In this document: positions 9,766 to 59,250 of the stretch, in pieces
How the letters are laid out: every line of letters begins with the position of its first letter
Numbering within the stretch: position 1 is the first letter of the stretch
NCBI RefSeq assembly: GCF_026930045.1
Contig: NC_072740.1
Span: 29,428,384 to 29,492,383 of the forward strand
From: Uloborus diversus
Taxonomy: Eukaryota
Reading direction: 5' to 3'
Length of the DNA stretch: 64,000 nt
Notes under the pieces: generated by a model
What the model was told of the DNA's origin: nothing
Database searches by the model: none
The model's input: only the letters and a program-made list of their open reading frames with translations
Made by a program: the position numbers and the translations under genes

Positions 9766-12360
9766 AACAACCAAATACTTGACAGCTCTGAATGGGCAGT
9801 GAGTATGGATATTGCAAAAACACTATTTTGAATAAGAAGAAATTAATTCAGTCACATTCTGTCAAGACCATGCTTTAGTGCATTTTGTGAGTTGGGAAGT
9901 AAGATATCACAAAACTAGAGCCTTACAAGCATTATTATTGTTTGTTTCATATCATTACGATCTTTAACTTTCATTTTTCTCGGACTTTTTTTCTATCTAA
10001 GTATTTTCTAACTCTTAAGTGTTTTTTCCTTTTGAAAATAACCTTAAAATTTTTGTAGATGTTTCCATATGTGTGATACGGCAAAAGTTAGATGTAGGTC
10101 AGATACGTATAGTTATATTTTCCGAATATATATTCAAAGTAAATATTTATTGAATTTTATTATTATTATTATTTTTTTTTTTTTTGAAATTTATCTACTA
10201 AAAGTATTTTGAATATCAACCAAAAGTTAGATTTTTAACACCATACCAATTTTTTTTCTAACAACTCAAGTAATTTAAATCACTTCGTGTTTTGAGAAAA
10301 TATTCAAAATTAAGTACTTAAAAAAAGATGTGAGAAGCTTTAAGCTTTCAATATTTAACCAAAAAAAAAAAAAAAAAAAAAAACAGGGCTGGCCAGACTG
10401 ACTTTTTCTTTTTTTGAAAACGAATATTCAAAATCATAAGCTGAAAAAGAAAAAGCATAAAATTATTACTTATAATGTTATAGTTTCAAAAAAATAAAAA
10501 ATAAAAATGCTGTGTTGCCTTTAAAATGAAAAACAAAAATGCTGAAATTTTTTTTTTAGTTTGCCATTTCTAAGTAAAAGTTCTTTTAATATTGATGCCA
10601 AATGCATGTGAAGTGCTGCAAGGAAAAAAGAAATATAAATAATGAGATTCTGTCATTATCACAGTTAAATACAAATGATGAAATTTTAACTCTCGTACAA
10701 AGTGTACCTGGGTTTATACTCAAATGAGAAGCACATTTTATCAACATGATACTATCCACATAATTGATATGAAGGGTTATCCTTGTGTACCTTCTCTCTT
10801 AGGGATATGTAAAAGACCAGGTTTGTGTACACTTTTCAGCATGATTTAACAGAACTGAATGAAAAAATTATACATACTGTCAATAACTTTGCTTAAAAAA
10901 AGTTGAGTAGAGTGTGGCAGAGTATTTTATTACAATTTATCTGGTAATTTTTATGTCACCTGAGATTACTTTTTTGTAATTTTCAAAAAATGTTCCTTTT
11001 TGTCATAATTTCATTCTACTTTTTATTTCTTTTTTCCATTTGTGTAAATAATATTAAATCTATATATCTATTTGAAGGGAAAGGTAAATTAAGAAGAAAA
11101 GCTCAACTACGTGAGTGTCATCCATTTGAAGCTGATTATTCTACTGATTCATCTTCGGATTTACGATCTCAATCCCGATCTCGATCTTTGTCGAGAGCAG
11201 GTATACATTTTAAGTTTCTTTCATTAAAAATTTAATGCTTTACCATATTACATTAAATGCATTAACTTATTATGTAAAACAAAATATAGTGAAACCGAAG
11301 TTTTTATGACAACATTTTGACAAGTAACTGCTTATGTTTTCACTTACTGACTGAATTGGACAGATGCCTTCTTTCAGTTACAGAAGAGTGTAGTAAGAAT
11401 TTCCTATTTATGATAACACATAAGGAATTTGAAAAACATCAAATACAGATACCTCTGAACACCTGTAATTCCCTCCCCCCCCCCTTTTGGAAAAAGTATT
11501 ATGTCGCACTACTTCTCAGTGTGAGTATGTAATGCAATATGTATATGTAGAGGGTTATTTAATATTCCTTCTGAGGTTTTGATGGTTAAAAAAAAAGAAA
11601 AAAACTCTGATGAATGTAGCAAAGAAGGGCATTTGACAGGGTGCAGAAAAAATTCAACTTTAATTCACATGCATTACAAGTATTCTCTTTGTAAACACTT
11701 GGTCACTCAACATACATCAGTGTAATATTTTATCTCCAACCACATTCTAACCTACATAATACAAAGCTATTGATGGTATGTACAGGGTGTCCTGAAATAG
11801 ACTGACCATTTTCAAAAATGTATAAAAGGAAACCGGTTAATGGTAAAAAATAATTTCTTGCGGAAAATTGACGTGGTGAACTGTAAGTTTTTTCCCCATG
11901 GGGTTCTAAATTTTATTTAGAATTTTTTTCAATAGATAGTGCTGTAGATAGTAAGCCTGTAAGTTAAAAGCTTACTGAAATTCACCGTTTTTTTCTTCGA
12001 TTGCGATTAGGACATGTGGTTCATAGTGGTGCCGACTCCATGGGGCCTGAGGGGGTTCGAGCTCCTTAAAAAACATTTTGGGGGTGGACAGAGCCCCCCA
12101 ATAACATATTTTGATTTCTAAAATCACAAAATTAGGTTAGCATTTTTCATTTTCGTTATTTCACGATAATTTCCTTGCAAAATAATAGTAAAAATCATGG
12201 TAAAGTTACGGTGCTGCAAGTTCTTTGAATTTATTGCACTTCGGGTAAAATCCGAACCGGCCTTGCGGCTGTGGCGACATGAAAAAGACTGGAGCAAAAG
12301 CGCCTGGAACTCTCCGTCTTGCATCCGTCGCCTTTACGCTTCGAGACAATACGATACCCC

Positions 12361-12375
12361 GGCTATATAAAGCCC
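12361..12375 (+). promoter_or_regulatory. TATA box (GGCTATATAAAGCCC) about 80 bp upstream of the transposase ATG
   Basis: It is a consensus TATAAA in GC-richer context immediately upstream of the 5' leader of the transposase ORF. Confidence 0.4.
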
Positions 12376-12453
12376 ACCCTGCTGGCGCAGGACGCAGTCA
12401 TTCAATGAGAATAGTTTCATTCAGTGCTTAGTGTATTCTGAATTAAGTTTGCA

Positions 12454-14935
12454 ATGGACAAATTTGTTACCAAAAAGGCACGTTTGGAAGTTACTGCAGA
12501 AGAAGACCATACTGCAAGTCAACCACCTGCAATTATTGTGCCTGCTTCATCGTCATCGGGCGAGAACGGTTCACAGCGGAAAACCTGGACAATCCGCTAA
12601 GGGAAGATCATTTCAGAAGTCTTGGTTGAACAAATATACATGGCTAGAATATGAAGCTTCAACTGAAAAAGTTTTTTGCAAAACCTGCAAAGAGGCAGAT
12701 GCTAAAATGCTATTACAATTTTCTTCAAAAAAAGAAGAAGCCTTTATTTCCATAGGATTTTCTAACTGGAAAAGGACTTTGCAAAAATTCTGTTTTCATG
12801 AAAATACGTTTATGCACAAAGGAGTTCTGAACCTGAATTCTATTAATAACCGAAGCGTGGCCTCCCAATTAAATGAACTGTTAGATAGTGAAATTAAGAA
12901 AAGCCGTTTAGCTCTGGAGACAATTTTTACTACCATGCAATTTCTATGCCGACAAGGACTAGCATTCAGAGGGCACGAAGATATACACTCAAATTTTTTT
13001 TCAATTGTTAGAACTCCAAAAGAATGACGTATCCGAGTTAAAAGTTTGGTTAGGGCGTTCGGGGTACAAGTGGATGTTCCACGATATTCAAAACGAGATC
13101 ATTAATATTCTAGGAAAGTCTGTGTTGAGAAAGGTATTGGCTTTGATCAAGAAGACTGAACATTTTTCTATTACGGTTGACGAAACAAGTAATTCTTCAA
13201 TTCACGAACAAGTGTCATTTTGTATTCGTACTGTCGATGATTCCTTAATCATCAACGAAGACTTCATTGGCTTATACGAGACCCCCAACACTGAATCGCA
13301 AACTCTGTTTAGTATTTTAAAAGACTTTTTGCTTGTCTTGATTTATCAATGGATAACATAAGAGGACAGTGCTATGATGGTGTTGCGAATGTGAGAGGTA
13401 AGTTCATAGGACTAAAAAAGTTGGTTTTGGATGCACAACCAAAGGCACTTTACGTGCATTGCACTGCTCACAGTTTAAACTTGGCAGTTGTAGACAGTTT
13501 CCGCCATCTTACGTCTATGAGGGATATTATGGCTTTAGCCAAGGACTTAATAAAAACCATAAGGGGGATATAACCCAAAAAGATGGGACTTTTCAGAAGC
13601 ATACGCTGTGAGAATGCCAACGACCAAGCTGGTCTACGACCCCTTTGCCCGACTCGATGGACGATGCGAGCTTCTAGTATCTTGAGAATATTGAAATGCT
13701 TTGATGAACTTTTACAGTTTTTTGAATGCACAACCAAAGGCACTTTACGTGCATTGCACTGCTCACAGTTTAAACTTGGCAGTTGTAGACAGTTTCCGCC
13801 ATCTTACGTCTATGAGGGATATTATGGCTTTAGCCAAGGACTTAATAAAAACCATAAGGGGGATATAACCCAAAAAGATGGGACTTTTCAGAAGCATACG
13901 CTGTGAGAATGCCAACGACCAAGCTGGTCTACGACCCCTTTGCCCGACTCGATGGACGATGCGAGCTTCTAGTATCTTGAGAATATTGAAATGCTTTGAT
14001 GAACTTTTACAGTTTTTTGAAACATTTTCTGCTAAAGATGAAACAGAGGCAGATTACAAATGTACAGGGTACCTTGAGTCAATGTTACAATTCAAGACTT
14101 ATTTCCTTTTACGTCTTTATTGCCATGCAATGAACTCAGTTGAGGATGTCAATGAAAAAATTCAATGCCCTCATCTAAGTGTTGCTAGTCTAGAAAAAAT
14201 ATATGAGGGCCTGATTTGTGTATGGAATGGTAGGCGTGATAGTTTTGAACACTTTTGGGAATTGTGTTTAAAAGAAAAACTTCGCAAGTTGATGATACTT
14301 CGCTTCCTCGGAGTCGACGTATGCCAAAGAAATATGAAAACGACGATGCCAGCTCACCGCACATTTTCGAAGCCCCAAAAGAGTTCTACAAAGCAATTTA
14401 CATTGAAGTTTGTGAAACGGTGCAATCTTGCATTACTGAGCAGTTTGCATCAACTGGACTTACACAGGTCATTGCAGTTGAACAAGAGTGCTTGCTTTTA
14501 GTAAACAGAGCTGAAACAAATTTTGAAAAATCAACTGAGTTTTTCAAAAATGACCTAGACATTGAGAGACTGTGGTTACACTTGAATATGTTAGCCGATA
14601 TTACTAGTAAAAAGCAACTAGTCTTAAAAGACATGGGTGATGTAAGAAAGTACATTACACAACAGCCTGCAGTTGGAGAAATGTTATGTGAAATAGTAAA
14701 GTGCATTAAGCTTCTTCAAGTAGTTCCAATCTCGACAGCAACAGCAGAATGGTCATTTAGCACCCTAAAACGTCTGAAGTCATATCTTCGATCAACAATG
14801 GGGCAGAAGCGATTGAACAACTTGGCTGTTCTTCATGCCCACCAAGATGTTTTGGATGAATTGGATATCCGACCACTCATCAACGACTTCATATTCAGTA
14901 ATCCAGTCAGACAATCAACATTTGCCCCTTTCTAA
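12454..14935 (+). pseudogene. hAT-superfamily transposase (TTF-type zinc finger + DUF4371-like + hAT C-terminal dimerisation domain; ZMYM1/Charlie-Buster-like), frameshifted
   Basis: Four consecutive six-frame ORFs (12431-13027, 13005-13361, 13349-13573 and 13878-14935) carry the pieces in order. (1) The first has a zinc-finger segment WLNKYTWLEYEASTEKVFCKTCKE ... FSNWKR ... H. (2) The second has a DUF4371-like block ELQKNDVSELKVWLGRSGYKWMFHDIQNEIINILGKSVLRKVLALIKKTEHFSITVDETSNSSIHEQVSFCIRTVD. (3) The fourth carries the C-terminal motif ATAEWSFSTLKRLKSYLRSTMGQKRLNNLAVLHAHQD, typical of hAT dimerisation domains. The pieces sit in different frames, so there are at least three frameshifts. The initiator ATG lies at 12454. 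Confidence 0.7.
13432..14021 (+). repeat. Internal tandem duplication, 2 x 295 bp, inside the transposase gene
   Basis: The segment TGCACAACCAAAGGCACTTTACGTGCATTGCACTGCTCAC ... CAGTTTTTTGAA occurs twice head to tail (13432-13726 and 13727-14021). Two ORFs therefore start with the identical peptide MGLFRSIRCENANDQAGLRPLCPTRWTMRASSILRILKCFDELLQFFE. Confidence 0.85.
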
Positions 14936-15690
14936 AAACACTCTAGCCCTAATAATGGTATTTGCAGTAAAATTGAAAGTCTTTATAAAATCAATAAATG
15001 CGTACAGAATGTTAAATTTTCAGCATCGAAATATTTACTCTTACTTATTATATTACTATATTACTATTGTACTGTATTAATTATTTTCAAATACTTAAAT
15101 ATTTTTAGGGTGTAAGACCCAATCAAAACTCGCTATTTATGTACTTTTTGACTGAAAGTATTAGGCATACTGTACTAACTTTATCAACTGTATTAAAGCA
15201 TTAACTTTGAGATATTGTATTTCTTTAATGAACCATGAGCCTATTCAAAGTAAGCTTAAATTAGCTGTTGCACTTATTAATTTCAGTGCTATTACTAGGC
15301 AATAGCAATATTTTATGTTTTATTCTTTCAATGATAGTTTAGGATTAATTTTAATAATTCAGTCTTTTCTGAGCTATATATTCAGCGCTTTGTAATAGTC
15401 TATATGCATAATTTTTACTGTAAATTAAACTAGCATTTTACAAAAATACCATTCATGTTTTCGTATTTTTTTTCTTTTCAAAGCTAAAAAATGTATTAGT
15501 CTTGTCGAGTTTTCAGGGTTTTAATTTTGATCACATGATTCTAAATTGCTTTAAAAAAATCCCTGTAAAACTCACTAATTTTCAACTAAAATTTAGAAAA
15601 TTTCCCGGAGCAAGACACTTGGTATTTAGAAAGAAATACTTAATTAATAGTATAGTAAAATTTGGCCAAAAAATGGCCAATCCCAAGCAT

Positions 15691-15692
<2 letters not shown>

Positions 15693-15733
<41 letters not shown>
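15693..15733. repeat. poly(A)41 inside the 3' part of the hAT-carrying element
   Basis: An uninterrupted A run. It is in frame in ORF 15502-15801 as poly-Lys, which is spurious. Confidence 0.9.
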
Positions 15734-15736
<3 letters not shown>

Positions 15737-17689
15737 GCCCCCTCAATATTTTTTATAAGTCGGCGCCCCTGTGTGATTGCAGTCGACGGTCGATAGTTTG
15801 AAAAAATTGTTATGTAATTTTGTTCAAATTCGAAAAATTATGATGTAATGTTCAATTTTTGATTCATGGGCTTGCTATCTGCAGTGCCAACTATTGAAAA
15901 ATTTATGAACTAAAATTTACCGCTTTGCTGGGAAAAAAATTATGGCCCGCCACATGAATTTTCTGCAAGAATTATATTTTTATCATTAACCGTTTTTATG
16001 TACTAATTTTTTCAAAACATTCGGTCTTTTTCAGGACACCCTGTATAACTTGTTTTTGTAACTATGTTAAATTGTGTGGAAAAAGATTTACGAAAACTTG
16101 GTTTTTACATACTACAACAAGAAAAGTACATTATAGAAAGTATAGGCAGCTGGTGCACGAGAAAAGTGGGCTTCAAAAGAAGTGAGGGGCTGGGGGTCAG
16201 GAAGTGTAACCCCTGAAGCTGATTTTTTTTTTGTAAAACTGCGTTATACAAGTGGTTTTTAACACTATTGATAAAATAACTTCTAAGAATATGAAATATG
16301 TCATCCAAAATTTGGATCAATGACCACTGTAGACTTTCCCCGAGTCTGCCCACGTTTGGAGTACTTTTTTTCAAAAAATTCAGATATTGAATTAGTTTTT
16401 TTTTTTAAACTGAAAACTGATTCAAAGTTGGAAAACAAACGAAAAAATAATTATTTGCTCAAAAAGATTTTAAAAATGAAAAATTTGAGCACAAATTAAG
16501 CGAATTTTGCAGTTTACCGCCAACTACTCTAAACTCGTTTCAACTCATTATGTTTAAACGTTCTTTCTAATGTAAGTTGATACATTACTTACCTGTGTTT
16601 TGAACTAAAAGCTTCATACCAGTCCCAAAATTTAGAAAAATGTATCAATTTTATTGAAATTCAAAGATTTTTCTTTGGAAAAATCCTTAATTTTTCGCAG
16701 TTAAATACCCGTAAAAATTCAAAATGCTGACCTAGAGCTTAGATTATTGTTCAAAACATAGCTAGCAATCTGGGAAACATTATTTGAAAAAATCAGATTA
16801 ATTGGTATAAAACTTTTGGAGTTATGAGATTTGTCCTAAATGAAAATATCGAAAAAAGTAGTTTCTCAGAAAATGCATTTAAAGATTTTAATATCAATGT
16901 ATTTGATAATTTTTGAGACTAAAATTCTCAATTATAGTAGCTAAAACATTCTTTGACTATACTTGTCAAATATGTACTTTTCTTAAAGTTTTTCCTTTTT
17001 CCTGGTTTTTTGGGTCCATAGGGTCTTTAAGTTAAACTTCCGGTTCTTATGGCATCACTTCCAGTGTACTTAATTGGCTCTAACTTCGTTTTTAATTATT
17101 GCAAAAACAAAATATTAACAATTTTAGGGTCCCAAAAAAATATTTTTTTAAAATATAGACTAAAATTAAAACCTTTTTTGATCAAAATGGTCATTTTAGG
17201 GTATGCAGAGCCCTTAGTTCCATTCTTATGAAATAAAATGAAAAATGTTCATTTATTTGAAATGTTTAGTTTTTAGCTTCGTGAAATATACAAATCCACC
17301 ATTTAATATTTTTTTTCTTCAATCGGTCATTAATTATCTCTGAAAAGTGAGGGGCAAGGACACTTTTCTTTTCAAAGTGAGTTGGCAGTTACCCCTTTGT
17401 CCCTCATTCAAGCTGCCTATGATGACAATGACTGACAAAAAACCTTGCACTAATATTTGTGAACATGGTATTAAAATCTGTTCGCTAATCACAACAGCGT
17501 AACATGGGCATGATTTGTTGCAGCTATCGACACTGTCGACCAGCGCCCTCTCGAAGAGTTAACTTACCCCACCGCCTATTAGGAATTCAATTCATAGAAC
17601 TAAACTTACCCCGCCATGTATTAAGAATTCATAGAACTAAACAATTATCTAAACATTTAATTTGCAATTTCAAATATTTTGGTCAATCT

Positions 17690-41443: not shown

Positions 41444-42019
41444 CAGGGTGTCTCAAAAGGTCATTGCCAAGTTGAACATACACGGGTCTGTCATAACTTG
41501 ACAAACAAGATTTACATAGTAACTTGTGTCCGAAAATCTGAGCAGCGATAGCTAGAGGGCAGGCTGATGGGAGAGTAGGAAGCGTGATCATTTCAGATGA
41601 TGACCTTGCAGGAGAATGATGAATCGGATTTTTAATGAAGAATTGTCTGATATGATTTGGCCAAAATGACATCAGACACAGATCTCATCGCCAGGATGGT
41701 AGAAGCAGCAGCATGTATCCGTGACGCACCTGCGCATTTTGAATGGCTCCGTGAATCCATGCACCGACGTTGTGAAGCTTGCATTGTTGCAAATAGAAGG
41801 AATTTTGAACATTTTCCGTAATTTAGTTATAATCTTTAATGAGAAAACATATTGAAACCTCTTTCGGCATCATTTCTTTCTCTCCCTCTATGCCTACAAA
41901 CATTTCCCTCTAGCAGTCATTGTTCACATTTTCGGACACAAGTTCCTATGTTAATCGTTTTTGTCAAGGTATGACAGACTAGCATATTCAGATTGGCAAC
42001 AACCTTTTGAGACACCCTG
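41444..42019. mobile_element. 576 bp MITE of the CAGGGTG long-TIR family (TIR CAGGGTGTCTCAAAAGGTCATTGCCAA)
   Basis: A 27 bp terminal match is followed by a second subterminal inverted block (GTCTGTCATAACTTGAC...CTTGTGTCCGAAAAT). There is no ORF. It inserted 48 bp downstream of exon E. Confidence 0.65.
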
Positions 42020-42500
42020 AAAAATCAATGAAAATTTAAATATAAGAGTGGTTTTTGATTGATTTACATTTTGCATCCGTTGCTGAAACTCAAAAAATGC
42101 TCTTGTTTTCAAAATTTTAAGTATTTTGATTGTAAAATTTATGCATAGAGAAGAGATATTAAAAGAAAGTTATACTTCTTAAAGTACTTCTACTACTACA
42201 TTATTATGTCAATAGCTCCCGTATGAAGCAACATGATTCTTTACTGATTCTATTTGTATATTTAAAAACAAATAAATAAAAATTTTAATTTTGATGACTT
42301 TGTTAATATTTTGAGCAGAGCAAAGAATAATCTAGTATTCTAATATTAAGAATTTGATGCTGTAATGAAGAGCTACTTATCTACTAAATATGGAATTCAG
42401 ACATTAAATAAGGATTATTTTACCCACTTTAACTTAAGCAATATCTTAATGCTGTAAGAGTTATTGCATATAGTGTCTCTATATAGTGTATACTAGTGTG

Positions 42501-42502
<2 letters not shown>

Positions 42503-42568
<66 letters not shown>
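42503..42568. repeat. (AT)33 microsatellite
   Basis: A perfect dinucleotide run. Confidence 0.95.
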
Positions 42569-42571
<3 letters not shown>

Positions 42572-43429
42572 CATTAGTACATTTCTTAGAAGTCCTAAAA
42601 AGTCTTTTTTTTTTTTATTCCAGATGTTTATTTTTTTCTGTTATTTTTATTTAAGTTTCATAATTTTCTGATACCATATTTTCCAGCAGAAGAAGTTGCT
42701 CTATCACGAAGCAATGCCAGGCCATCCTGATAGCCCCACCATATTTTATTTTTTCCTATCTCTTTATCAGGGGTGCCATTTCTCCCTATTATTTAGTCTT
42801 CCACATTTCTTAATAAATTATCCCTTCCTCAGCGCTTTTAGACTTTCCAGTTGTGGAATTAATGCAGAAATAAAGTACTAATGCTTTGGAAAGAAATTTT
42901 GAATGAATTAACCTAACAATACTAATAATTTTAGTATTCAATTATCCATAAGCTGAAGCTTTGGCCCACATATTTGGCAACATTTTTGGAACCTGCTCCA
43001 TACAATTGTACAACAGTTTCATAAATTTGAATTGTTGTTTTTCTCCCCTAACAATATTTTATCTGACTAGCTTGTTATTTTAGTTTTCTAATTGGAAAAT
43101 TATACTATTAATAAAGCTAAATGTTATAAAACAAATAAAATTACTTTTTGGCTACTTTATTTGTGCTTAAATATGCTGAACATGTAATCCACGAAAAAGG
43201 TAAATGATTTTGAAGAATATTCAGAGAAGCTAACTTTCTCTGAAAGACAAAAATACTTTTTCTCCCAGTTTACATTCGCGGCCATGTTTTTGATATATAT
43301 ATATATACACAAGGGTAAATGGGAAAGTAACCGCCGTTTGGGTCTGGTGCTGGAAGTACGTTTCAGAGCACCCTCAATCAAATGCACAAGCAATGTGCAA
43401 TCCAATAAGCTTCCAGTGAGCAAGTGAGA

Positions 43430-46237: not shown

Positions 46238-46372
46238 ATTCAACTTTTGAATATTACAAGCTTGGCATTAATGTACTCTGCCAATCTTAAAAGTCCATGT
46301 GACGAATATAGGTTGTTGTTGAAAAAATGTGCTGATGATGTTCGACAATTAGATCCAGAGTTTATTTTGAAG
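46238..46372 (+). CDS. TROVE-domain exon G (IQLLNITSLALMYSANLKSPCDEYRLLLKKCADDVRQLDPEFILK)
   Basis: It has acceptor tttttgcag| and donor ttgaag|gtacc. It is 135 nt in phase 0. The ..DEYRLLL.KCA.D..QLDPEFILK motif matches my recollection of the segment just upstream of the TEP1 TROVE core. Confidence 0.6.
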
Positions 46373-46793: not shown

Positions 46794-46955
46794 GTTGCAC
46801 TTTATGCACGTCAAGAACTTCATATTAGATCTGTTGCAAATTTCCTGCTTTCTTATGCAGCCTTCTATGAAAGTACTCGTATATTCTTGGAGAAGTATTT
46901 TAAAACTAGTATAGTTTTGCCATCAGATTGGATTGATGTTGGAGAGCATTACCAA
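46794..46955 (+). CDS. TROVE-domain exon H (VALYARQELHIRSVANFLLSYAAFYESTRIFLEKYFKTSIVLPSDWIDVGEHYQ)
   Basis: The acceptor is tttacag|. The 162 nt open frame carries the characteristic TROVE block LYARQ.L.IR..AN..L..AAF ... LPSDWI.V.E.YQ, as recalled from vertebrate TEP1. The donor is a weak gtacta. Confidence 0.6.
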
Positions 46956-47459
46956 GTACTATATTTTCTTACTTTATAGCATTTACACTGATGAACCAAA
47001 ACATTATGACCACACCCCTCACATTTTTTAATGAACTTCTTTGGATCAAATGAAGGACACATGATTAAGTGTGAATGGTATTTAACTGTTACTAGGAAAG
47101 GTAAGGGATTATTCTTGCGCTTACTTTTGCAAGTGATGGGAAAGACAGCTGAACTGAACGGATCTGATAGACAGATTTTATTGGCTTAAAGGCTCAAAAT
47201 GAGTATCTCCAAAACTGCATGACTGGTAGGTTATTCACAATCTTTGTTGTTAGTATTTATGAAAACTGGAAAATTGATGCTGAAACCAGCAGCAAGAGGC
47301 CCATGTGTCATTAAAGAAAAACGACATCAGACACTATTCCGCTTGGTTATCTAAATAGAGACCAGACAGTGGCTCAGTTGACAGTTGAGTACAATACAAG
47401 GCCAAGTACATGTGTTTCGACACACACAGTTCAGCAGAAACTGTTGGCAATATGGGCAG

Positions 47460-50266
47460 TAGGGTGGTCCTTATTTTTGAAGTTGCAGATATTTTACGCG
47501 ACGCCCCCTCAATTTGTTCCATTGTACAAATAAATGATCCTTGCAAAATTTAAAGTCAATCCATGAATATTAACACGTGCCCCTAGGGTCCCCTTTTTTG
47601 AGTTTCGAAGAAAAAATTGCGGATTTTCTCATTTTCATGTAAAAATATTCTAACGTTTTATATATAATAAAATATTCTAGAATAAATATTCTAACGTAAT
47701 TTTGAACCTCAATAGGTGCTGCTACTTCCAGATCGACCATTTTCTCACTTTCATTCAGTAAAATTTAACATGTTACAGAGAATAAAATGTACACCAATGG
47801 CCTTGGGTCAAGCATACCGCTCTTCTGCGCTTGTTCCAACCAAGCGGTAGGGGAACGTTTCTTCCCATCAAGATGGACTAAAGGGATTCTATAGTCTATT
47901 AATGAATGACCAAGGCCATGAACGATCATTGACAACAACAAATTGCCTCCTCCAGGCTTTGGGGGTGTGGATTTACAAAATTCCCTGTGTATAAATTAGG
48001 TGTGTCAAATAGAGTCGCAAGGTTTCAATGCTGTAAATATAAGTAATTGCAATTATATTTTATTTCGCTGTTCTTTAGTTATAAACATACCTAAATGCTT
48101 ATGCAATTTTTAATTTTTAAAATATAACTTTCGAAAAATCCTTGATTACTGCTAACATAAAAATATACTGTATTTTCCATAGCTAAAATATAAATTAAGA
48201 AATAATATCCAGATCGGAACAATGTAGAAATCTATACTTTAAATTAATTTTCTTCTATTTCAGTACATAGTCCTTTTTTATCATCAAATTCTTGCGATTC
48301 ACAAGATTTAGAAACTGAAATGGGTATCTATCCTAACCTGTTGAACTTTTGTTTTCTACAGCTGGTGTACCACAATGCAAAAAAGCTTGACAACTATTAA
48401 TATCTCCTTGCCTTTCATCACTGTTAGACAAATGCCATATTAGGGATAAAGATGTTGTTCATTTCTTTACAGCCTATGTAGATGCAGTAAATTTAAATCC
48501 AAATGACCTAGTGATCAATCGTACATTCCTTGAGAGAGCAAAAGAAATTCTTCGAGAGGTAAAATTAAATTTCCTGAATTTAAATTTAGATTCTGTAGTT
48601 ATTTACTGGAATACAAAGCTACATCCAGATGTAACTGGAAAAAGAACGTCGACAGGATTACCGTGATAGCTTCAGGTCCTAATATTGAACAGCTACTCGG
48701 AATTTTTTAGATATTTCTTCAGTTGTATATGATATCTTAGATGATAGTTCTTTATTGCTAACTGTTCTACTGTAGTGTTTGATACAACGACTTGCAATAC
48801 CAACCGTATAAATTGTGCATGCAATTTTTTAGAGCAAAAACTGAACTGTGATATATTACATTTGGATTGCCATCATCATGCACTTGAAATCGTACTGCAG
48901 AGTGTGTCCTTAAAGAAGTTCTTGCCGTTCTTAGTTCTAGATCAGATATTCAATTATTTAAGTGCTTCAAAATTTGTGGAAAGATCTCCATTATTCAGAA
49001 CTTAAAACATTTCAATCAAGTACACATACCACTTAAATTCTAAAAGACGAAGTGGATGACATATTATTGTTCGTAAAAAGCGGAATTGAGAAAGATTACA
49101 GAGAATTCTCATAACTTGTAATAATATTTCCTGGTGAATTTCCCCCTACAGGTATATGTTTTCGGCAACCTGGAGCTTATCCCTGAGCCACATGGGTGGC
49201 AAAAGGAATTTTTGTTTGAAAATTTTTATATTTAGGAAACAATTTAAATTGACCTTACATGAAAAGAAAGTCCCTTCAATGCTGTTTACAAAGCTCTTTT
49301 ACAATTAAATTCTGTATGAAGATATGTTTTTTTGTAGCAACCCAATCGAGGCTCCTTTGAATAATATAATATCCCTGAAAAACTAGCAGCGTACAAAATG
49401 ACGACAAACATGCAGCAGAAGCAGTGATTGGAAAATTCATAAATCACTTATGGTATTTAGGGGATAAACTAGTAGCTTTGTTCGTATTGGATGAAGGAAT
49501 TAACTTTGAAGATAGAAAAAGACTAGTTCAAAAAATGCTTGTGATAAGGAAGACGTGTCTGATGACTGTTTAACAAATTTCAGATAGCAGTAGATGATTT
49601 AGAATACTTTCTTAGTAAAGATCTTCCTCTTTATAGAATCAATTACGAGTCAATAAAATTGTTTAATAAGTTGCAAATACTAAAAGATTTTTTCCTATTT
49701 GATCCTGATTCACGGCAAAATGCTTAAGCTATTTAAAGGGAAGAGAGATTGTTAAAATACTGAAAATTGTGAATGATACAACTGAAAGAAGAGCACAATA
49801 TATTAATCAAAGAATTTCACAACCAATTTACCAAATATAAGTCACAAAGCAATTTATTTTACAGACCGTCCAAGACTATCAAAAAAAAAATACACACTAT
49901 CAAGATACATTGACAAAAGCGTACGATTAAGGAAAGTTTAAAAAGCATTATTTCATTCTTATTCAAAGTAAAATCTTTAGATGATATAAAGTAATTAAAA
50001 AGGTTAATTTTAGTGCTATCTCACTGTAAAAATATTTTGGAAACCTAGGAGAAACGATGTACTGGGTCTGAAGTAAAAACTCGGAAAATTTGTGGGAAAA
50101 TTATCAAAAGTGTTCAAGTTCAGCGGCCTAGGGGCACGTGTTATTATTGACCGATCGAGTTCAAATTTTGCACACGTTACTTTTTATTATAGTGTCACAA
50201 AACTAGGGGGCGTCACTTGTTGAATTCCGGAAAAAAAATTTTCCCATATAAATAAGGACCACCCTA
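47460..50266. mobile_element. 2.8 kb non-autonomous hAT element (TIR TAGGGTGGTCCTTATTT..., 8 bp TSD ATGGGCAG)
   Basis: A perfect 8 bp direct repeat ATGGGCAG is present at 47452-47459 and 50267-50274. About 150 bp of inverted similarity is visible at the ends: TAGGGTGGTCCTTATTT..GACGCCCCCT..AACACGTGCCCCTAGG in both arms. It splits the Tc1 transposase between ..NCWQYG and QPAVPP... The internal ORF 48775-49005 (..LDCHHHALEIVLQ..) may be a transposase remnant. Confidence 0.65.
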
Positions 50267-50558
50267 ATGGGCAGCCAGCTGTCCCACCCGTATATCTCTT
50301 TCGAACAAGCGTTATTGTTAACAATGCCTACAGTTGGCCCAGGAACATCAAGATTGGATCATATTTAAGTGGAAGAAAGTTGCTTGATCAGATTTATGGC
50401 AAATCGTTATTTATCATTTCACTGGTCATGTCCGGGTACGCCATCTTCTCTGCGAGCAGTTGATCCCTTCATCTACAACGTGTAATACACAGGGGTGGTG
50501 GGAACATTATGCTTTAGGCAACATTCTCATGAGTGGCTATGGGACCCTCAGTTGTGGT

Positions 50559-51910
50559 TAGGGATTGCAATACCGGATCAAAAATGCAATACTGGTATTT
50601 GATATTTTTTAAACGTGATACCGGAATACCGGTAGTAGAAATTTCCCCAAAAAACATTCAAAAACACCATATTCTGTTGCCATATATTATTATTTTGTGC
50701 CAAAAGTGCATTAGTTACTTATTGTGAACACAAATAAAATGAAGGCACAAATATCATAATAAAAAATCAATAATAGCGAGAAACATAATGCATCTATTTA
50801 GCACCCACTAAGCCTGGAACTCATTTTAATAAACAAATTTCCTGCAGTTGAAAATTCTTTCTGGATTCGCACAGGCCGGTGGTACTGTTAATAATGCTGG
50901 ATACAACTCCTTAGTTGCCTGGAAGTCCTTCATTTTCAAATTATTTGTTCTTTAAATTGTTGGTTTTGAAAAAATCATTTTTGTGAGTGAGTGTGTTTCT
51001 TTTGTGTTGTGAGTGGTTTTATTTTTTAATCATTATTATTGGTAGTTAATTGTATGTTCTTCGAGCGAAAATTCTTTTCCAGCATTAACATTATCTTCAA
51101 CAATTTTCCCTTGGTCAGAATAGAATTGTGTTTGCTTTTTATTATCTCTTTGGTTTGACATTTAGGATGTATTTGATCTTGTTAGTTTCTTTTTCTTCGT
51201 TTTTGTTTCTTTTTTGAAATTCTTTACAATTATGTAAGTATCTGAAAATATGTTCCAACTGATTATACCTTACTTCTTTGCAAATGTTCGAGGCATTATA
51301 AATATTATCTCGCTTGGAATCGCAAGACAGAACAGCACTCTAATACTGGTGACAACAAATTACTGTTTGTTATACTATCAAGAAAAAGTTTTTCCCGAAA
51401 TTCAGTACTGTAAAGACAAATATTTAAAAAAAATATCATAAAAAAATTGCTGCAATTGATGTTTGGAACAAATTTTTCATAGCACAAACACATTCGTAAT
51501 TGCACTTAAAATTTATTTTCACAAGAGGACAAGTCAAGGAAACTGAGAAAATAAAAATGTAGTTCACATAAACTCATGAAAGTGTGGTTTATCATACCAT
51601 CTAGTGATGAAAATATCATTTTGTAATCTTTCCGTTACTTTTATTCATTCATATTCTATAACTTTGTGCTTTTGAAAACAAATTTTTATTCAGAAGCTTC
51701 ATTTTGGTACTGTCTGCTCAAAAAAAAAAAGAAAATTATGTTTCAAATAACAGTAGGTATCCGATTATATATAGTTAAATTAAAAACATTTTTTTTTGCT
51801 AATACCCAAAAAACCGATATTCTACCCCAGCAAATATTGGTATTACGGAATTGCAAAATAGCTCCAAATACTGGTACTTGGTATATGGGTGTACCGGTAT
51901 TGCAATCACT
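50559..51910. mobile_element. 1.35 kb non-autonomous hAT element (TIR TAGGGATTGCAATACCGG, 8 bp TSD GTTGTGGT)
   Basis: The left end reads GTTGTGGT|TAGGGATTGCAATACCGG and the right end reads CCGGTATTGCAATCACTA|GTTGTGGT. Subterminal TACCGGTAT repeats are present. It interrupts the Tc1 ORF between ..SGYGTL and SCGRIGYESY... Confidence 0.65.
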
Positions 51911-52696
51911 AGTTGTGGTAGAATAGGTTATGAAAGCTACAGAACATCTGAACATCACTGCAGACCAGTCGCACACTTGCATAGCGTCTTTCTTCGGATC
52001 TGGAAATGGAAACTTTCAAGAAGACCACAACCCGTATCACGAGACTCGCATTGTGTTGGAGTTAATGATGTGTTCTAGAGCGGGGATCGGGACTAAAACA
52101 AAGTGTGTGTGAGGGAGGGGGAAGGAAAGGAAAAAAATGCAAAATTTTGCTAGGGCTGATTTTGAGAGCAAATGAGTGGTCATAGATGTAAATATCTAGC
52201 AACTAAACTCACGTTTTTATTAAGATTTTGATGAATTTTGTACAGAATAACTTTCCCTGAAGAAACACTTAGACATGAATCAGACTTACATTACTTATCC
52301 CAAAGTATTTTGAGATGTCAGAAACACTTAGTAATAATTTCATTGAACAAGTATGGCTTGTTTAAGTAAAACAATTGATATACTAATATCTAAACAATGA
52401 ATACATAAATTAAAAGGAACTGCTTGTGTTAAATAATGTTTCATCAACGAAATAAAACAAATAATTATGTTCTGAAAATTTTGACATTTCTGCTTTTTTT
52501 TATAATTTTGAGTTTTGGTTTCTAAATTGAATTAAAAAGAAAAGAAAAATGGGGGGGGGGGGTCTCCGCTCCCCCTGAATTGCCGCCACTGATGAGTTAT
52601 ACTTAATGTCCCGGCAACTTAACTCACCAGGTTTTTATCCAGTAGAGCATTCTTGAGCTTTTATAGAGATGCAGCTCAGAGAGCAAACCCCACCAT

Positions 52697-53166
52697 TAGG
52701 GTGGTTCAAAAAAACTTTTTTTCAGCTAGAATCCGGGACACCCCATATATTTTTTAAGACTCACTAATAGTATTATGCTGCAAAAGTTTTATGTTCTTAC
52801 TCAAATTTTAAGAGGATACTCAATGACCCATCAATTCATCATTAGCCATACCATAGAAAATGTCACAAATTTAGAAAAATTTAATTTCCCCAGCTGTTTT
52901 TTTGTAAATAATTATTTTATTGCAATTTATATGCATATTACTTCTGCATATAATAATACGTAGCATTGTTTTTCCAGTTCAAAGTATTTTGTTAACCCCC
53001 TCCCGATAATAATAAAGTTTGGGGAAGGGGTTAAGCACCCTCTTTCAGTTGAAATAGGAAGCTAAAATTCTTCCAGTGTATTACTATCCACAAGTCTAAA
53101 AAAATTGAGGGTTGTCCTTTTATCTAGGATAAACTTTTTTTTTACATGTATTTTTGAACCACTCTA
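52697..53166. mobile_element. 470 bp hAT MITE (TIR TAGGGTGGTTCAAAAA, 8 bp TSD CCCACCAT)
   Basis: The left end reads CCCACCAT|TAGGGTGGTTCAAAAAAAC and the right end reads TTTTTGAACCACTCTA|CCCACCAT. It sits in the C-terminal part of the Tc1 element. Confidence 0.6.
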
Positions 53167-53979
53167 CCCACCATGTTAGAATGCCTCCACTTAGTGTGAC
53201 CTCTGCTTAGACATTTGGTACAAACTATCTGTAGGCATCTGCTAATAAATTGTGGTATCCATGGCAGACAAGTTGCAACTATTTTGAATACAAAATAGTA
53301 TAGCTACACATTACTGAGTAGGTGGTCATAATGTTTTTGGCTCTTCAGTGTACTCTTTATTCATATATTTATTCTAAAATATACTCAAAGTTACCAATCT
53401 TGAATAAAAGTTAATTGTATTTTTAAATGTTACAATCAAGTTAACCCACTGGTTGATTGGAATGAGAACTTAATTTAAAGTGATGGGAGCATTCCCTTTA
53501 TTCTAAATACATTTTCCCAGTGTTTTTTATATAAACTATTACTACAACATGCGTTTGGTTTTATTGATCCCTCTTTTCTCTCATTTCTGCAAAAACTATT
53601 TCAACAGCTCACGATTTTATGTTCCCTAGGGAAGATCTTTTTTTTGTTTTTTGAAAGGAATAATGTATGGTGCAGAATAGGTTAAGGGAGGTAGATCCTG
53701 TGCAATTAATCTTTTGCATGTCTGTGTCAGGATTGCAATGACTTAAGATAATATTAAGTGTTCAAATGTTGTTTACATTTTTTTTTCAAGTAAGTTTCAA
53801 TAAGATACTGCATTTTTTTCTTCTAGGAAAACTAGAATATAAGATTTTTATTTGAATGGGAAGAAAAACTAATTTGTGGTAGAAAAGGGCTAACTAAAAG
53901 GGGAAGCAAAGAGTTGTTTGAGATAATCATTCTCAGTGCATTAATGTTTTATGCACTATTTCACAAGGTTTAGTTTAAG

Positions 53980-57949: not shown

Positions 57950-59250
57950 ACATGAGTACCTTAGTATGATGTGTGATTACTATTGACACTAATGCACATT
58001 TTGCATCTGTTTTTCCATACTTCCCACTAAACTATTGAGGAGTGCTTGGAGGATATTTTCCTACTCCTTTCTCAAGGCGAATTTGAGTTCTTATACTGTT
58101 CTGGGAGGGAGGGTTTTTGTGTAACACATCTGCCAAGAGCATCTCAGGCATGTTCAATTGGATTTAAGTCAGGAGAGTGAGCAGGCCACTGCATATGAAG
58201 AATGTTTTCACTTTTCAGTGTGTCTGATACTTTAATGCTCCTGTGTGATCATGCATTGTCTTCCATAGAGAGAAAGTCTGGACCTACAGCCCCTCTAAAA
58301 AGACGAACATGATACAGTATAACTTCTCTGCAATACCTTTGCAACATAACGCTCCCTTGTTCAAAAATGTGAAGCAGTGTTCTGCCTTTGTGCATGATGC
58401 CTGCCCACACCTCACGCCTGGGCTGTACCAATCACGTTCACTAACAAATTTTTGTGCATAACGTGTTCCACGCTCGCTCTACAGTAGTTGGTGACCAGAA
58501 TTACTTGTCACACTGAAACGAGATTTCTTGGAGAACATCACTCTAGACCAATTTTGACGATCCCAACCAACATGTTTCTTACAACAGCGTAATCTCTCTC
58601 GACCAGGGCTTGGTTGAAGTGGGTTACAATGTACGGCTTCCATGCATACAAACCAAAATTGTTTAATTGCTGTGAGATGGTTCTTACAGAAACATGCATA
58701 CCGGTAGCGGTAACAAGATTTTCAACTATCTGTCCTGGAGTGAAATTTCTCTTCATTTTTGCCACAAGGGCTACATAACCATCCTCTGAAGGTGTGGTGT
58801 TCCTACCATGACCCCTGGCATGCTTTCGCGAAGCGATTTCCTCCTCAGCGGCCTTCTTTAATCGCAAGATGACACTTTCTGATACACCCATTGAAGCGGC
58901 TAAAGAGCTGGAAGCTTTGATCAGCTTCCAGCTGTCCAACTGTTCGTCCACGATCCTAGGTATTCAAATGATGTCTTGCGGACATTTTACTCTTAAATAT
59001 TTCCAGAACCAAACAGAATTTCAGAGAAAAGACTATTTCAACATCCAGCACTATTTTTGTTAAGCACCAAACAGCATGAATTTTCGTACCAATCTTGAAC
59101 TTGTATGCACTGTCTTTTATACAGATAACGAGTCTTGATCTACGACACCATCTGAACTTGAATTTATTTCCATTGGCCAGCTGTCTGAGGCACAAATTTG
59201 TATAAATCACTTGTTACTTAGCAATTGTCAAGCAGTGTATTTTTAATAAT
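57950..59250 (-). mobile_element. Tc1-like element, transposase pseudogene
   Basis: The transposase is read in three pieces on the minus strand. (1) ORF 58538-58951 is an N-terminal HTH/paired-like region (..GRNTTPSEDGYVALVAKMKRNFTPGQIVENL..VSVRTISQQLNNFGLYAWKP..). (2) A frameshifted continuation follows: W..VMFSKKSRFSVTSNSG.. then ..WAGIMHKGRTLLHIFEQGSVMLQRYCREVILYHVRLFRGAVGPDFLSMEDNA (the DDE core). (3) Finally comes ..MQWPAHSPDLNPIEHA*DAL.. The TIRs are not resolved. Confidence 0.6.

Follow-up and report, generated by a model that had tools for sequence, protein, structure and literature searches.

Nests of transposable elements (TEs), in which one element sits within another, serve to order insertions in time, for example in the genomes of maize and other eukaryotes. 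Two groups of described elements lie closest to the nest considered here. Tc1-family elements, among them Sleeping Beauty (SB) and C. elegans Tc1, have a TA duplication, inverted ends that start from CA and one transposase open reading frame (ORF). hAT elements, among them Ac and Hermes, have target-site duplications (TSDs) of 8 bp and short terminal inverted repeats (TIRs), usually given as 10–25 bp, that start with YARNG; TSDs of about 8 bp are also produced by the P element and by Mutator-like (MULE) transposons. Hermes excision passes through hairpins on the flanking DNA. The target preference of Hermes is 5'-nTnnnnAn-3' (PMC10368747), and hAT groups that are divergent but characterised, hATx-6 among them, retain BED and hATC domains (PMC8721813). 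Here we describe a Tc1-like element and its inserts at positions 46986–53350 of a 64,000-nucleotide stretch of Uloborus diversus DNA (RefSeq contig NC_072740.1, positions 29,428,384 to 29,492,383 of the forward strand), hereafter called the window.

We read the locus, with a probability of about 0.88, as class II (cut-and-paste) transposons that came to be nested step by step. It is an ordinary nested-TE site, a routine case of transposons within transposons. As in other TE nests, an older element is broken by younger ones, the topology gives the order, and excision in silico restores the host; nothing notable distinguishes it from such nests, and it is small, made of class II elements only and probably intronic. 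An earlier note, made from the sequence alone, had described most of this anatomy, and its coordinates and sequence strings all proved correct on re-reading. It counted four segments of the host element. There are in fact five, as a 519-bp block also interrupts the Tc1 element. The parts are as follows, in window positions.

46986–53350, + strand: whole composite, a Tc1-family (DD34E-type) remnant as judged from its SB100X match, with four interruptions and TA-CACTG...CAGTG-TA ends
46984–46985 and 53351–53352: left and right TA, the duplicated target of the Tc1 element, as seen in the letters themselves
46986–47013 and 53322–53350: left and right Tc1 TIRs, arms of 28 and 29 nt
46986–47459, + strand: Tc1 segment A, with the 5' end, the transposase start and the putative DNA-binding part; frames +0/+2 read MGKTAELNGSDRQ...VSTHTVQQKLLAIW
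47460–50266, + strand: ins1, 2807 bp, autonomous element of the TAGGGTGGTCCTTAT family in a decayed state, hAT-like
48355–49870, + strand: dead transposase gene within ins1, with stops and frameshifts, located by tblastn with the family protein P0001
50267–50558, + strand: Tc1 segment B, region of the putative first catalytic D, to GGGNIML...GPS, from alignment with SB100X and Tc1A
50559–51911, no strand assigned: ins2, 1353 bp, non-coding element
51912–52070, + strand: Tc1 segment C, ...VVVE.VMKATEH...FQEDHNPYHETRIVLELMM, putative second catalytic D, from alignment with SB100X
52071–52589, no strand assigned: fourth interruption, 519 bp, AT-rich, with a G12 run; TGATG at 52066–52070 and 52590–52594
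52590–52696, + strand: Tc1 segment D, DELYLMSRQLNSPGFYPVEH..., putative catalytic E, aligned to SB100X ...VLEWPSQSPDLNPIEN...
52697–53166, no strand assigned: ins3, 470 bp, miniature inverted-repeat transposable element (MITE) of the TAGGGTGGT group
53167–53350, + strand: Tc1 segment E, with the transposase C terminus and the right TIR, from the SB alignments

The outer element is, by its TA duplication, TIRs and homology to transposases with the Asp-Asp-Glu (DDE) triad, a remnant of the Tc1 family (Tc1/mariner superfamily), as the earlier note had proposed. The TA directly abuts the TIRs on both sides, which alone would be weak evidence in a window of 67% A+T. The left end is CACTGATGAACCAAAACATTATGACCAC and the right end the reverse complement of CACTGAAGAGCCAAAAACATTATGACCAC; the two arms share 26 identities, with 2 mismatches, 1 indel and a perfect core of 16 nt, and at about 29 nt they resemble the inverted ends of the Tc1 family. 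Without all four interruptions the element measures about 1.19 kb, at 41% G+C. Unlike other members of the family, this copy is short and heavily decayed: in the 335 codons of the stitched ORF at least 13 in-frame stops occur, and there are several frameshifts.

Within this remnant lie three inserts with the perfect 8-bp TSDs that the earlier note had reported (8/8 each). ins1 has the TSD ATGGGCAG at 47452–47459 and 50267–50274, directly outside TIRs of sequence TAGGGTGGTCCTTATTT that match at 17 of 17 positions (47460–47476 and 50250–50266); beyond the TIRs, its two ends resemble each other over about 130–140 nt. ins2 has the TSD GTTGTGGT at 50551–50558 and 51912–51919, and its ends TAGGGATTGCAATACCGG and TAGTGATTGCAATACCGG, with the termini TAGGGATTGC and TAGTGATTGC, form a TIR of 17/18; subterminal ATACCGG/CCGGTA repeats are present (CCGGTA and AATACC six times each in the terminal 2 x 200 nt). 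ins3 has the TSD CCCACCAT at 52689–52696 and 53167–53174 and the ends TAGGGTGGTTCAAAAA and TAGAGTGGTTCAAAAA (TIR 15/16), the right one starting with TAGAG. The three pairs of ends had been taken to represent one TAGGGTG-type family. That view does not hold: ins1 and ins3 share TAGGGTGGT ends, the ins2 terminus TAGGGATTGC has only TAGGG in common with them, and blastn found no similarity among the three inserts.

Excision restores what the inserts broke. When the three inserts were removed in silico, each with one TSD copy, 1711 bp remained. This sequence was searched by tblastn with hand-entered SB10 and Tc1A queries, and SB residues 188–265 aligned in one frame over junction 2 and residues 272–311 over junction 3; the same queries matched only fragments of segment B in the unexcised window. 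Compared with PDB sequences by phmmer, the stitched Tc1 peptide had a sole match, the SB100X catalytic domain (5cr4_A, E=5.2e-15), in one uninterrupted alignment (query 119–322) that runs through junction 2, the point of the 519-bp block and junction 3. In it the Tc1 motifs xSD, FQED and PVEH align with SDE, QHDND and NPIEN of SB, which we take to carry the DDE triad, and about 33–34 residues (±1, owing to a frameshift) separate the second D from the E. Upstream, segment A aligns with SB10 residues 62 to about 112, and a local phmmer alignment to the hand-entered SB sequence (residues 57–322) covers junction 1 with a 2-residue gap. The check that the earlier note had set beforehand, that excision should give back a collinear if mutated transposase, thus came out as predicted, at junctions 2 and 3 by tblastn and at junction 1 by the local alignment.

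Several points weigh against the Tc1 assignment and the collinearity. The frames of both stitched peptides, that of Tc1 and that of ins1, were picked by hand. Neither the six-frame translation nor the stitched Tc1 peptide matched the Pfam models DDE_3 or HTH_Tnp_Tc3_2 at E<=1, and the stitched peptide had no match in a word-indexed search of 5.8 billion proteins, so that the identification rests on the PDB match and on hand-entered query sequences. The missing Pfam match is, in our view, due to the heavy decay of the copy, as the PDB homolog was still found; the empty word-indexed search is in keeping with such decay as well.

One could instead see in the arrangement an accident of short direct and inverted repeats, or a chimera of the assembly, with no real insertions. 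In line with this, each element occurs only once in the window: self-BLAST of all parts against it found no second copy, and hence no empty site or paralog there. We scanned the whole window for perfect 8-bp direct repeats immediately flanking an inverted repeat of at least 11/12, and exactly three such structures were found, namely ins1, ins2 and ins3, whereas first-order Markov shuffles averaged 0.12 per window, with never more than 2. A relaxed scan anchored on YARNG returned the same three (shuffle mean 0.37). Together with the collinear and statistically significant transposase that excision restores, and with the finding, described below, that aphid genomes and metagenome contigs also carry the termini, protein and TSD pattern of ins1, these numbers make an accidental origin extremely improbable. 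The nature of the 519-bp block is harder to judge. The SB alignment puts ...RIVLELMM straight before DELYLMSRQLNSPGFYPVEH..., with the 519 bp between them, and once the block is removed the SB100X alignment crosses the site with a 1-residue gap only. That the block is an independent mobile element, with a 5-bp TGATG duplication and ends that are unrecognisable or lack TIRs, has in our estimate a little less than an even chance. Its position at the very point where the SB100X alignment calls for no added residues speaks for this, as do the same 5-mer on either side and a G+C content of 33%, which differs from the 41% of Tc1 and resembles the AT-rich host DNA. Against it stand the weakness of a 5-nt flanking repeat as evidence of insertion and the lack of recognisable TE hallmarks, which also weighs on the wider reading of the locus as a nest: we found no convincing TIR (the best inverted pairing, of 13 nt, lies inside the block), no poly-A, no tRNA (ARAGORN) or Rfam match, and no further copy, either in the window or among the fetched loci. 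Filler DNA from double-strand-break repair through TGATG microhomology fits the block equally well. Other candidates were rejected. An intron of Tc1 is contradicted by the SB alignment, which has no space for one, and by the lack of any GT...AG pair that would mend the frame; a piggyBac-type insert between two TTAA sites would cost about 8 conserved residues; the 5' TC and 3' CTRR-T rules of Helitrons do not hold jointly; and a tRNA-derived short interspersed element (SINE) is not borne out by ARAGORN or Rfam.

Of the inserts, ins1 is the most informative, since it retains a transposase gene. By tblastn with P0001, a family protein of 565 residues, residues 45–558 are covered in three frames (E=5e-75); the gene has at least 6 in-frame stops in 471 codons and about 8 frame changes. 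The stitched peptide retrieved 14 proteins (best E=1.6e-109, 46% identity), two of them aphid 'hypothetical proteins' and none with a Pfam domain. A profile of 11 members matched 13,718 cluster representatives (50% identity) at E<=1e-3 in a library of 1.84 billion sequences, which would put the family among the commoner transposase families of eukaryotes in public sequence data, with no Pfam match among the members scanned. An AlphaFold (AF2) model built from 76 sequences (predicted local distance difference test score, pLDDT, 91; predicted template modelling score, pTM, 0.86) has an RNase H-like DDE core that, like the core of Hermes, is split by a large all-alpha insertion domain, and the predicted fold is closest to that of the Hermes hAT transposase. 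Residues H127/D129/K131, D194/N199, C223/H226/E229, R335 and N529/D530/R534 are invariant in the family, and at least 90% of its sequences keep W336 and E533; they fit the DDE triad and the CxxH and RW motifs that we take to be typical of hAT transposases, which we treat as a lead only. On the predicted model, the family encodes a DDE transposase of about 560–790 residues. About half of the full-length members (P0019–P0163 in alignment A2) are about 740–790 residues long and have an extra N-terminal region of about 190 residues, whose consensus includes ...LFDIA...ED..FL..QR..R and has no Pfam match. This region may be a DNA-binding module in the stead of a BED finger.

Relatives in other hosts tie this protein to its termini. 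A 3.5-kb copy in Uroleucon formosanum (L001:3925–7435) carries a homologous gene, the TSD ATCTACAT on both sides and the ends TAGGGTGGTTCAAAAA and TAGGGTGGTCCAACC; a 4.5-kb copy in Aphis glycines (L002:3179–7666) has the TSD ATATATAT and TAGGGTGGTCCTTAT at both ends. Both TSDs are perfect (8/8). The same TAGGGTGGTCCTTAT forms the right end on a JGI contig (L003). The inverted ends of the two aphid copies extend over about 370–550 bp, of which ins1 retains its end similarity of about 130–140 nt. The left end of ins3 is identical to that of the autonomous Uroleucon copy, TAGGGTGGTTCAAAAA, so that ins3 is a MITE of the ins1 group. In a metagenome scan the 15-mer TAGGGTGGTCCTTAT occurred in at least 120 contigs, some of them surely by chance. 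Nineteen of 120 contigs fetched by the terminus alone encode the family protein, and in 19 of these 19 it lies inward of the terminus; in 15 metagenome contigs the ends are about 73% identical to those of ins1 over 70–138 nt. The ins1 terminus is thus shared by distant hosts, and terminus, protein and TSD of the family are linked in independent copies.

The same termini reveal a target preference. We compiled the 8 bases outside 94 non-redundant termini with an AT-rich interior, and the resulting logo (A.51, T.70, G.45, T.46, A.45, C.43, A.63, T.52) has the palindromic consensus ATGTACAT, with the signal mostly confined to the 8 positions next to the terminus, save for one A-rich position at -10. 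With T in 70% at position 2 and A in 63% at position 7, the TAGGGTGGT group follows the nTnnnnAn pattern of Hermes. Under the position weight matrix (PWM) of the family target, the ins1 TSD ATGGGCAG ranks at the 99.9th percentile of the 8-mers in the window. The 15-nt termini and the ATGTACAT preference are common to aphids, to this organism and to the metagenome hosts; this conservation could come from strong co-constraint between the transposase and the ends, or from repeated horizontal transfer. A literature search on the terminal sequences turned up only primers and bacterial repetitive extragenic palindromes (REPs).

Is the ins1/ins3 group hAT, as the earlier note had it? Much of that assignment stands. 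The 8-bp TSD, the nTnnnnAn target, the YARNG end (TAGGG at all ins1 and ins3 ends, except for TAGAG at the right end of ins3) and the Hermes-like predicted fold all resemble Ac/Hermes, and by analogy with these elements the family very probably functions as a hAT element does. The P element and MULE transposases score below Hermes for the ins1 family, termini and target logo fit hAT, and the members scanned had no Pfam domain of the THAP, GTP-binding or MULE type. The part that does not stand is the domain signature, and here the evidence weighs against hAT membership. Pfam found nothing for 21 family members (11+10), even at E<=10 for the first 11, and nothing in the raw six-frame or stitched translations of ins1. 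Among those 21 there was no match to the hAT dimerisation domain (PF05699), and hhalign of the family against a Dimer_Tnp_hAT (PF05699) protein gave a probability of 1%. No Pfam zf-BED match was found either, including in the longer members with the extra N-terminal region. PDB sequences compared with the 11- and 76-sequence profiles gave only noise, and Foldseek against the PDB, run on a first and poorer model, returned nothing significant. The family protein is only 11% identical to Hermes (PDB 8edg), and the inverted ends of the aphid copies, at about 370–550 bp, are far longer than the 10–25 bp of hAT elements. As the two domains are not recognisable in sequence and the other features agree, we call the family hAT-like; a dimerisation domain could be present at the level of the predicted fold. 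Membership in hATx/hATm was rejected, as those elements are described with BED and hATC domains. The same evidence could be read in two further ways. ins1 and ins3 could belong to a separate DDE lineage of superfamily rank that shares the 8-bp stagger and the general architecture with hAT without being hAT proper; we hold such a lineage to be unlikely. The TAGGGTGGTCCTTAT elements as a deep and so far unnamed hAT-like branch with neither BED finger nor recognisable hATC, both of which may have been lost or never present, is a distinctly doubtful proposition in our estimate.

For ins2 the assignment is more tentative. Its 8-bp TSD and YARNG-type terminus make a hAT element plausible. It has no coding remnant, and no other copy was found in the window or the fetched loci, so that its superfamily has to be read from TSD length and five terminal bases, which weighs against the assignment.

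That all three 8-bp-TSD/TIR inserts of the 64 kb lie within one 1.7-kb Tc1 remnant has a post hoc probability of about 0.002 under uniform insertion. Good sites under the PWM of the TAGGGTGGT family are about as dense in Tc1 as in the rest of the window, and the target motif therefore does not explain the clustering.

The nest lies next to a gene. The window has 33% G+C, and we take its DNA to be eukaryotic from its exon-intron structure. Two exons precede the Tc1 element, with splice signals read from the sequence:

46292–46372 (end near 46372), + strand: earlier TROVE-domain exon, from the Pfam match of the joined translation
46794–46955, + strand: later TROVE-domain exon, with a GT donor at 46956–57

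Translated jointly, they match Pfam TROVE (PF05731, E=6.6e-17) and encode part of this domain, which occurs in proteins of the TEP1/Ro60 kind; their peptide had no close homologue in the word-indexed search of 5.8 billion proteins. The target TA of Tc1 (46984–85) lies 28 nt beyond the GT donor, which places the Tc1 cluster probably at the start of an intron of this TROVE-domain gene. No exon downstream of the cluster was identified within the window.

We propose the following course of events. A Tc1-family element of about 1.2 kb would have entered a TA 28 nt downstream of the TROVE-gene exon, probably within an intron. The copy would then have died and taken four further events, to which we assign no relative order. 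One would be the entry of ins1, a 2.8-kb, transposase-bearing element of the TAGGGTGGTCCTTAT family that is now dead. Another would be ins3, the 470-bp MITE, whose terminus TAGGGTGGTTCAAAAA is a sister of that of ins1 and which a transposase of this kind presumably moved in trans. The non-autonomous ins2, of 1.35 kb and with TAGGGATTGC ends, is not related to these and may likewise have been mobilised in trans, and the 519-bp block flanked by TGATG would be the fourth event. Staggered 8-bp cleavage of the target by the three TIR elements would have produced the perfect 8-bp duplications. By analogy, the ins1 family is most likely hAT-like in mechanism as well, with double-strand excision followed by 8-bp staggered integration.

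As in the earlier note, the inserts are younger than the Tc1 element, because they are nested in it. The density of in-frame stops, roughly threefold higher in Tc1 than in ins1 (13/335 versus 6/471 codons), agrees with this order. The claim that perfect TSDs make the insertions recent goes further than the data: the 50 unchanged TSD and TIR bases of ins1 bound its divergence since insertion at only about <6% per site. The stops and frame changes of its gene fit this limit, and would also fit a copy that had lost its function before it inserted.

For annotation, the locus can be entered as one dead Tc1 element, two putative hAT-like families and one MITE beside a TROVE-gene exon, and it yields a local relative chronology. 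Its wider value may lie in a large family that is dark to Pfam and is tied here to its termini, to an 8-bp palindromic target and to a Hermes-like predicted fold. This could help to label thousands of 'hypothetical proteins' of arthropods and other organisms as transposases, unless Repbase or Dfam has already done so.

Other elements occur elsewhere in the window. The CAGGGTG-ended sequences (11783–16043; 19365; 41444–42019; 59588) are mostly flanked by TA and not by 8-bp duplications; at 11783, TA-CAGGGTGTCCTGAAATAGAC pairs with CAGGGTGTCCTGAAAAAGAC-TA at 16043, with inverted ends of 19/20. The TA flanks give these sequences a TA-targeting look, and the 'CAGGGTG family' is thus probably not hAT. 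A second Tc1-like transposase remnant, at about 58030–58950 on the - strand, is better preserved than the nested one (tblastn with Tc1A, E=1.6e-13 over 58129–58598; a 137-residue ORF at 58538–58951) and has no nucleotide similarity to it. Positions 42474–42668 hold a long microsatellite of the (TA)n/(TATA)n type, which translates as poly-YI.

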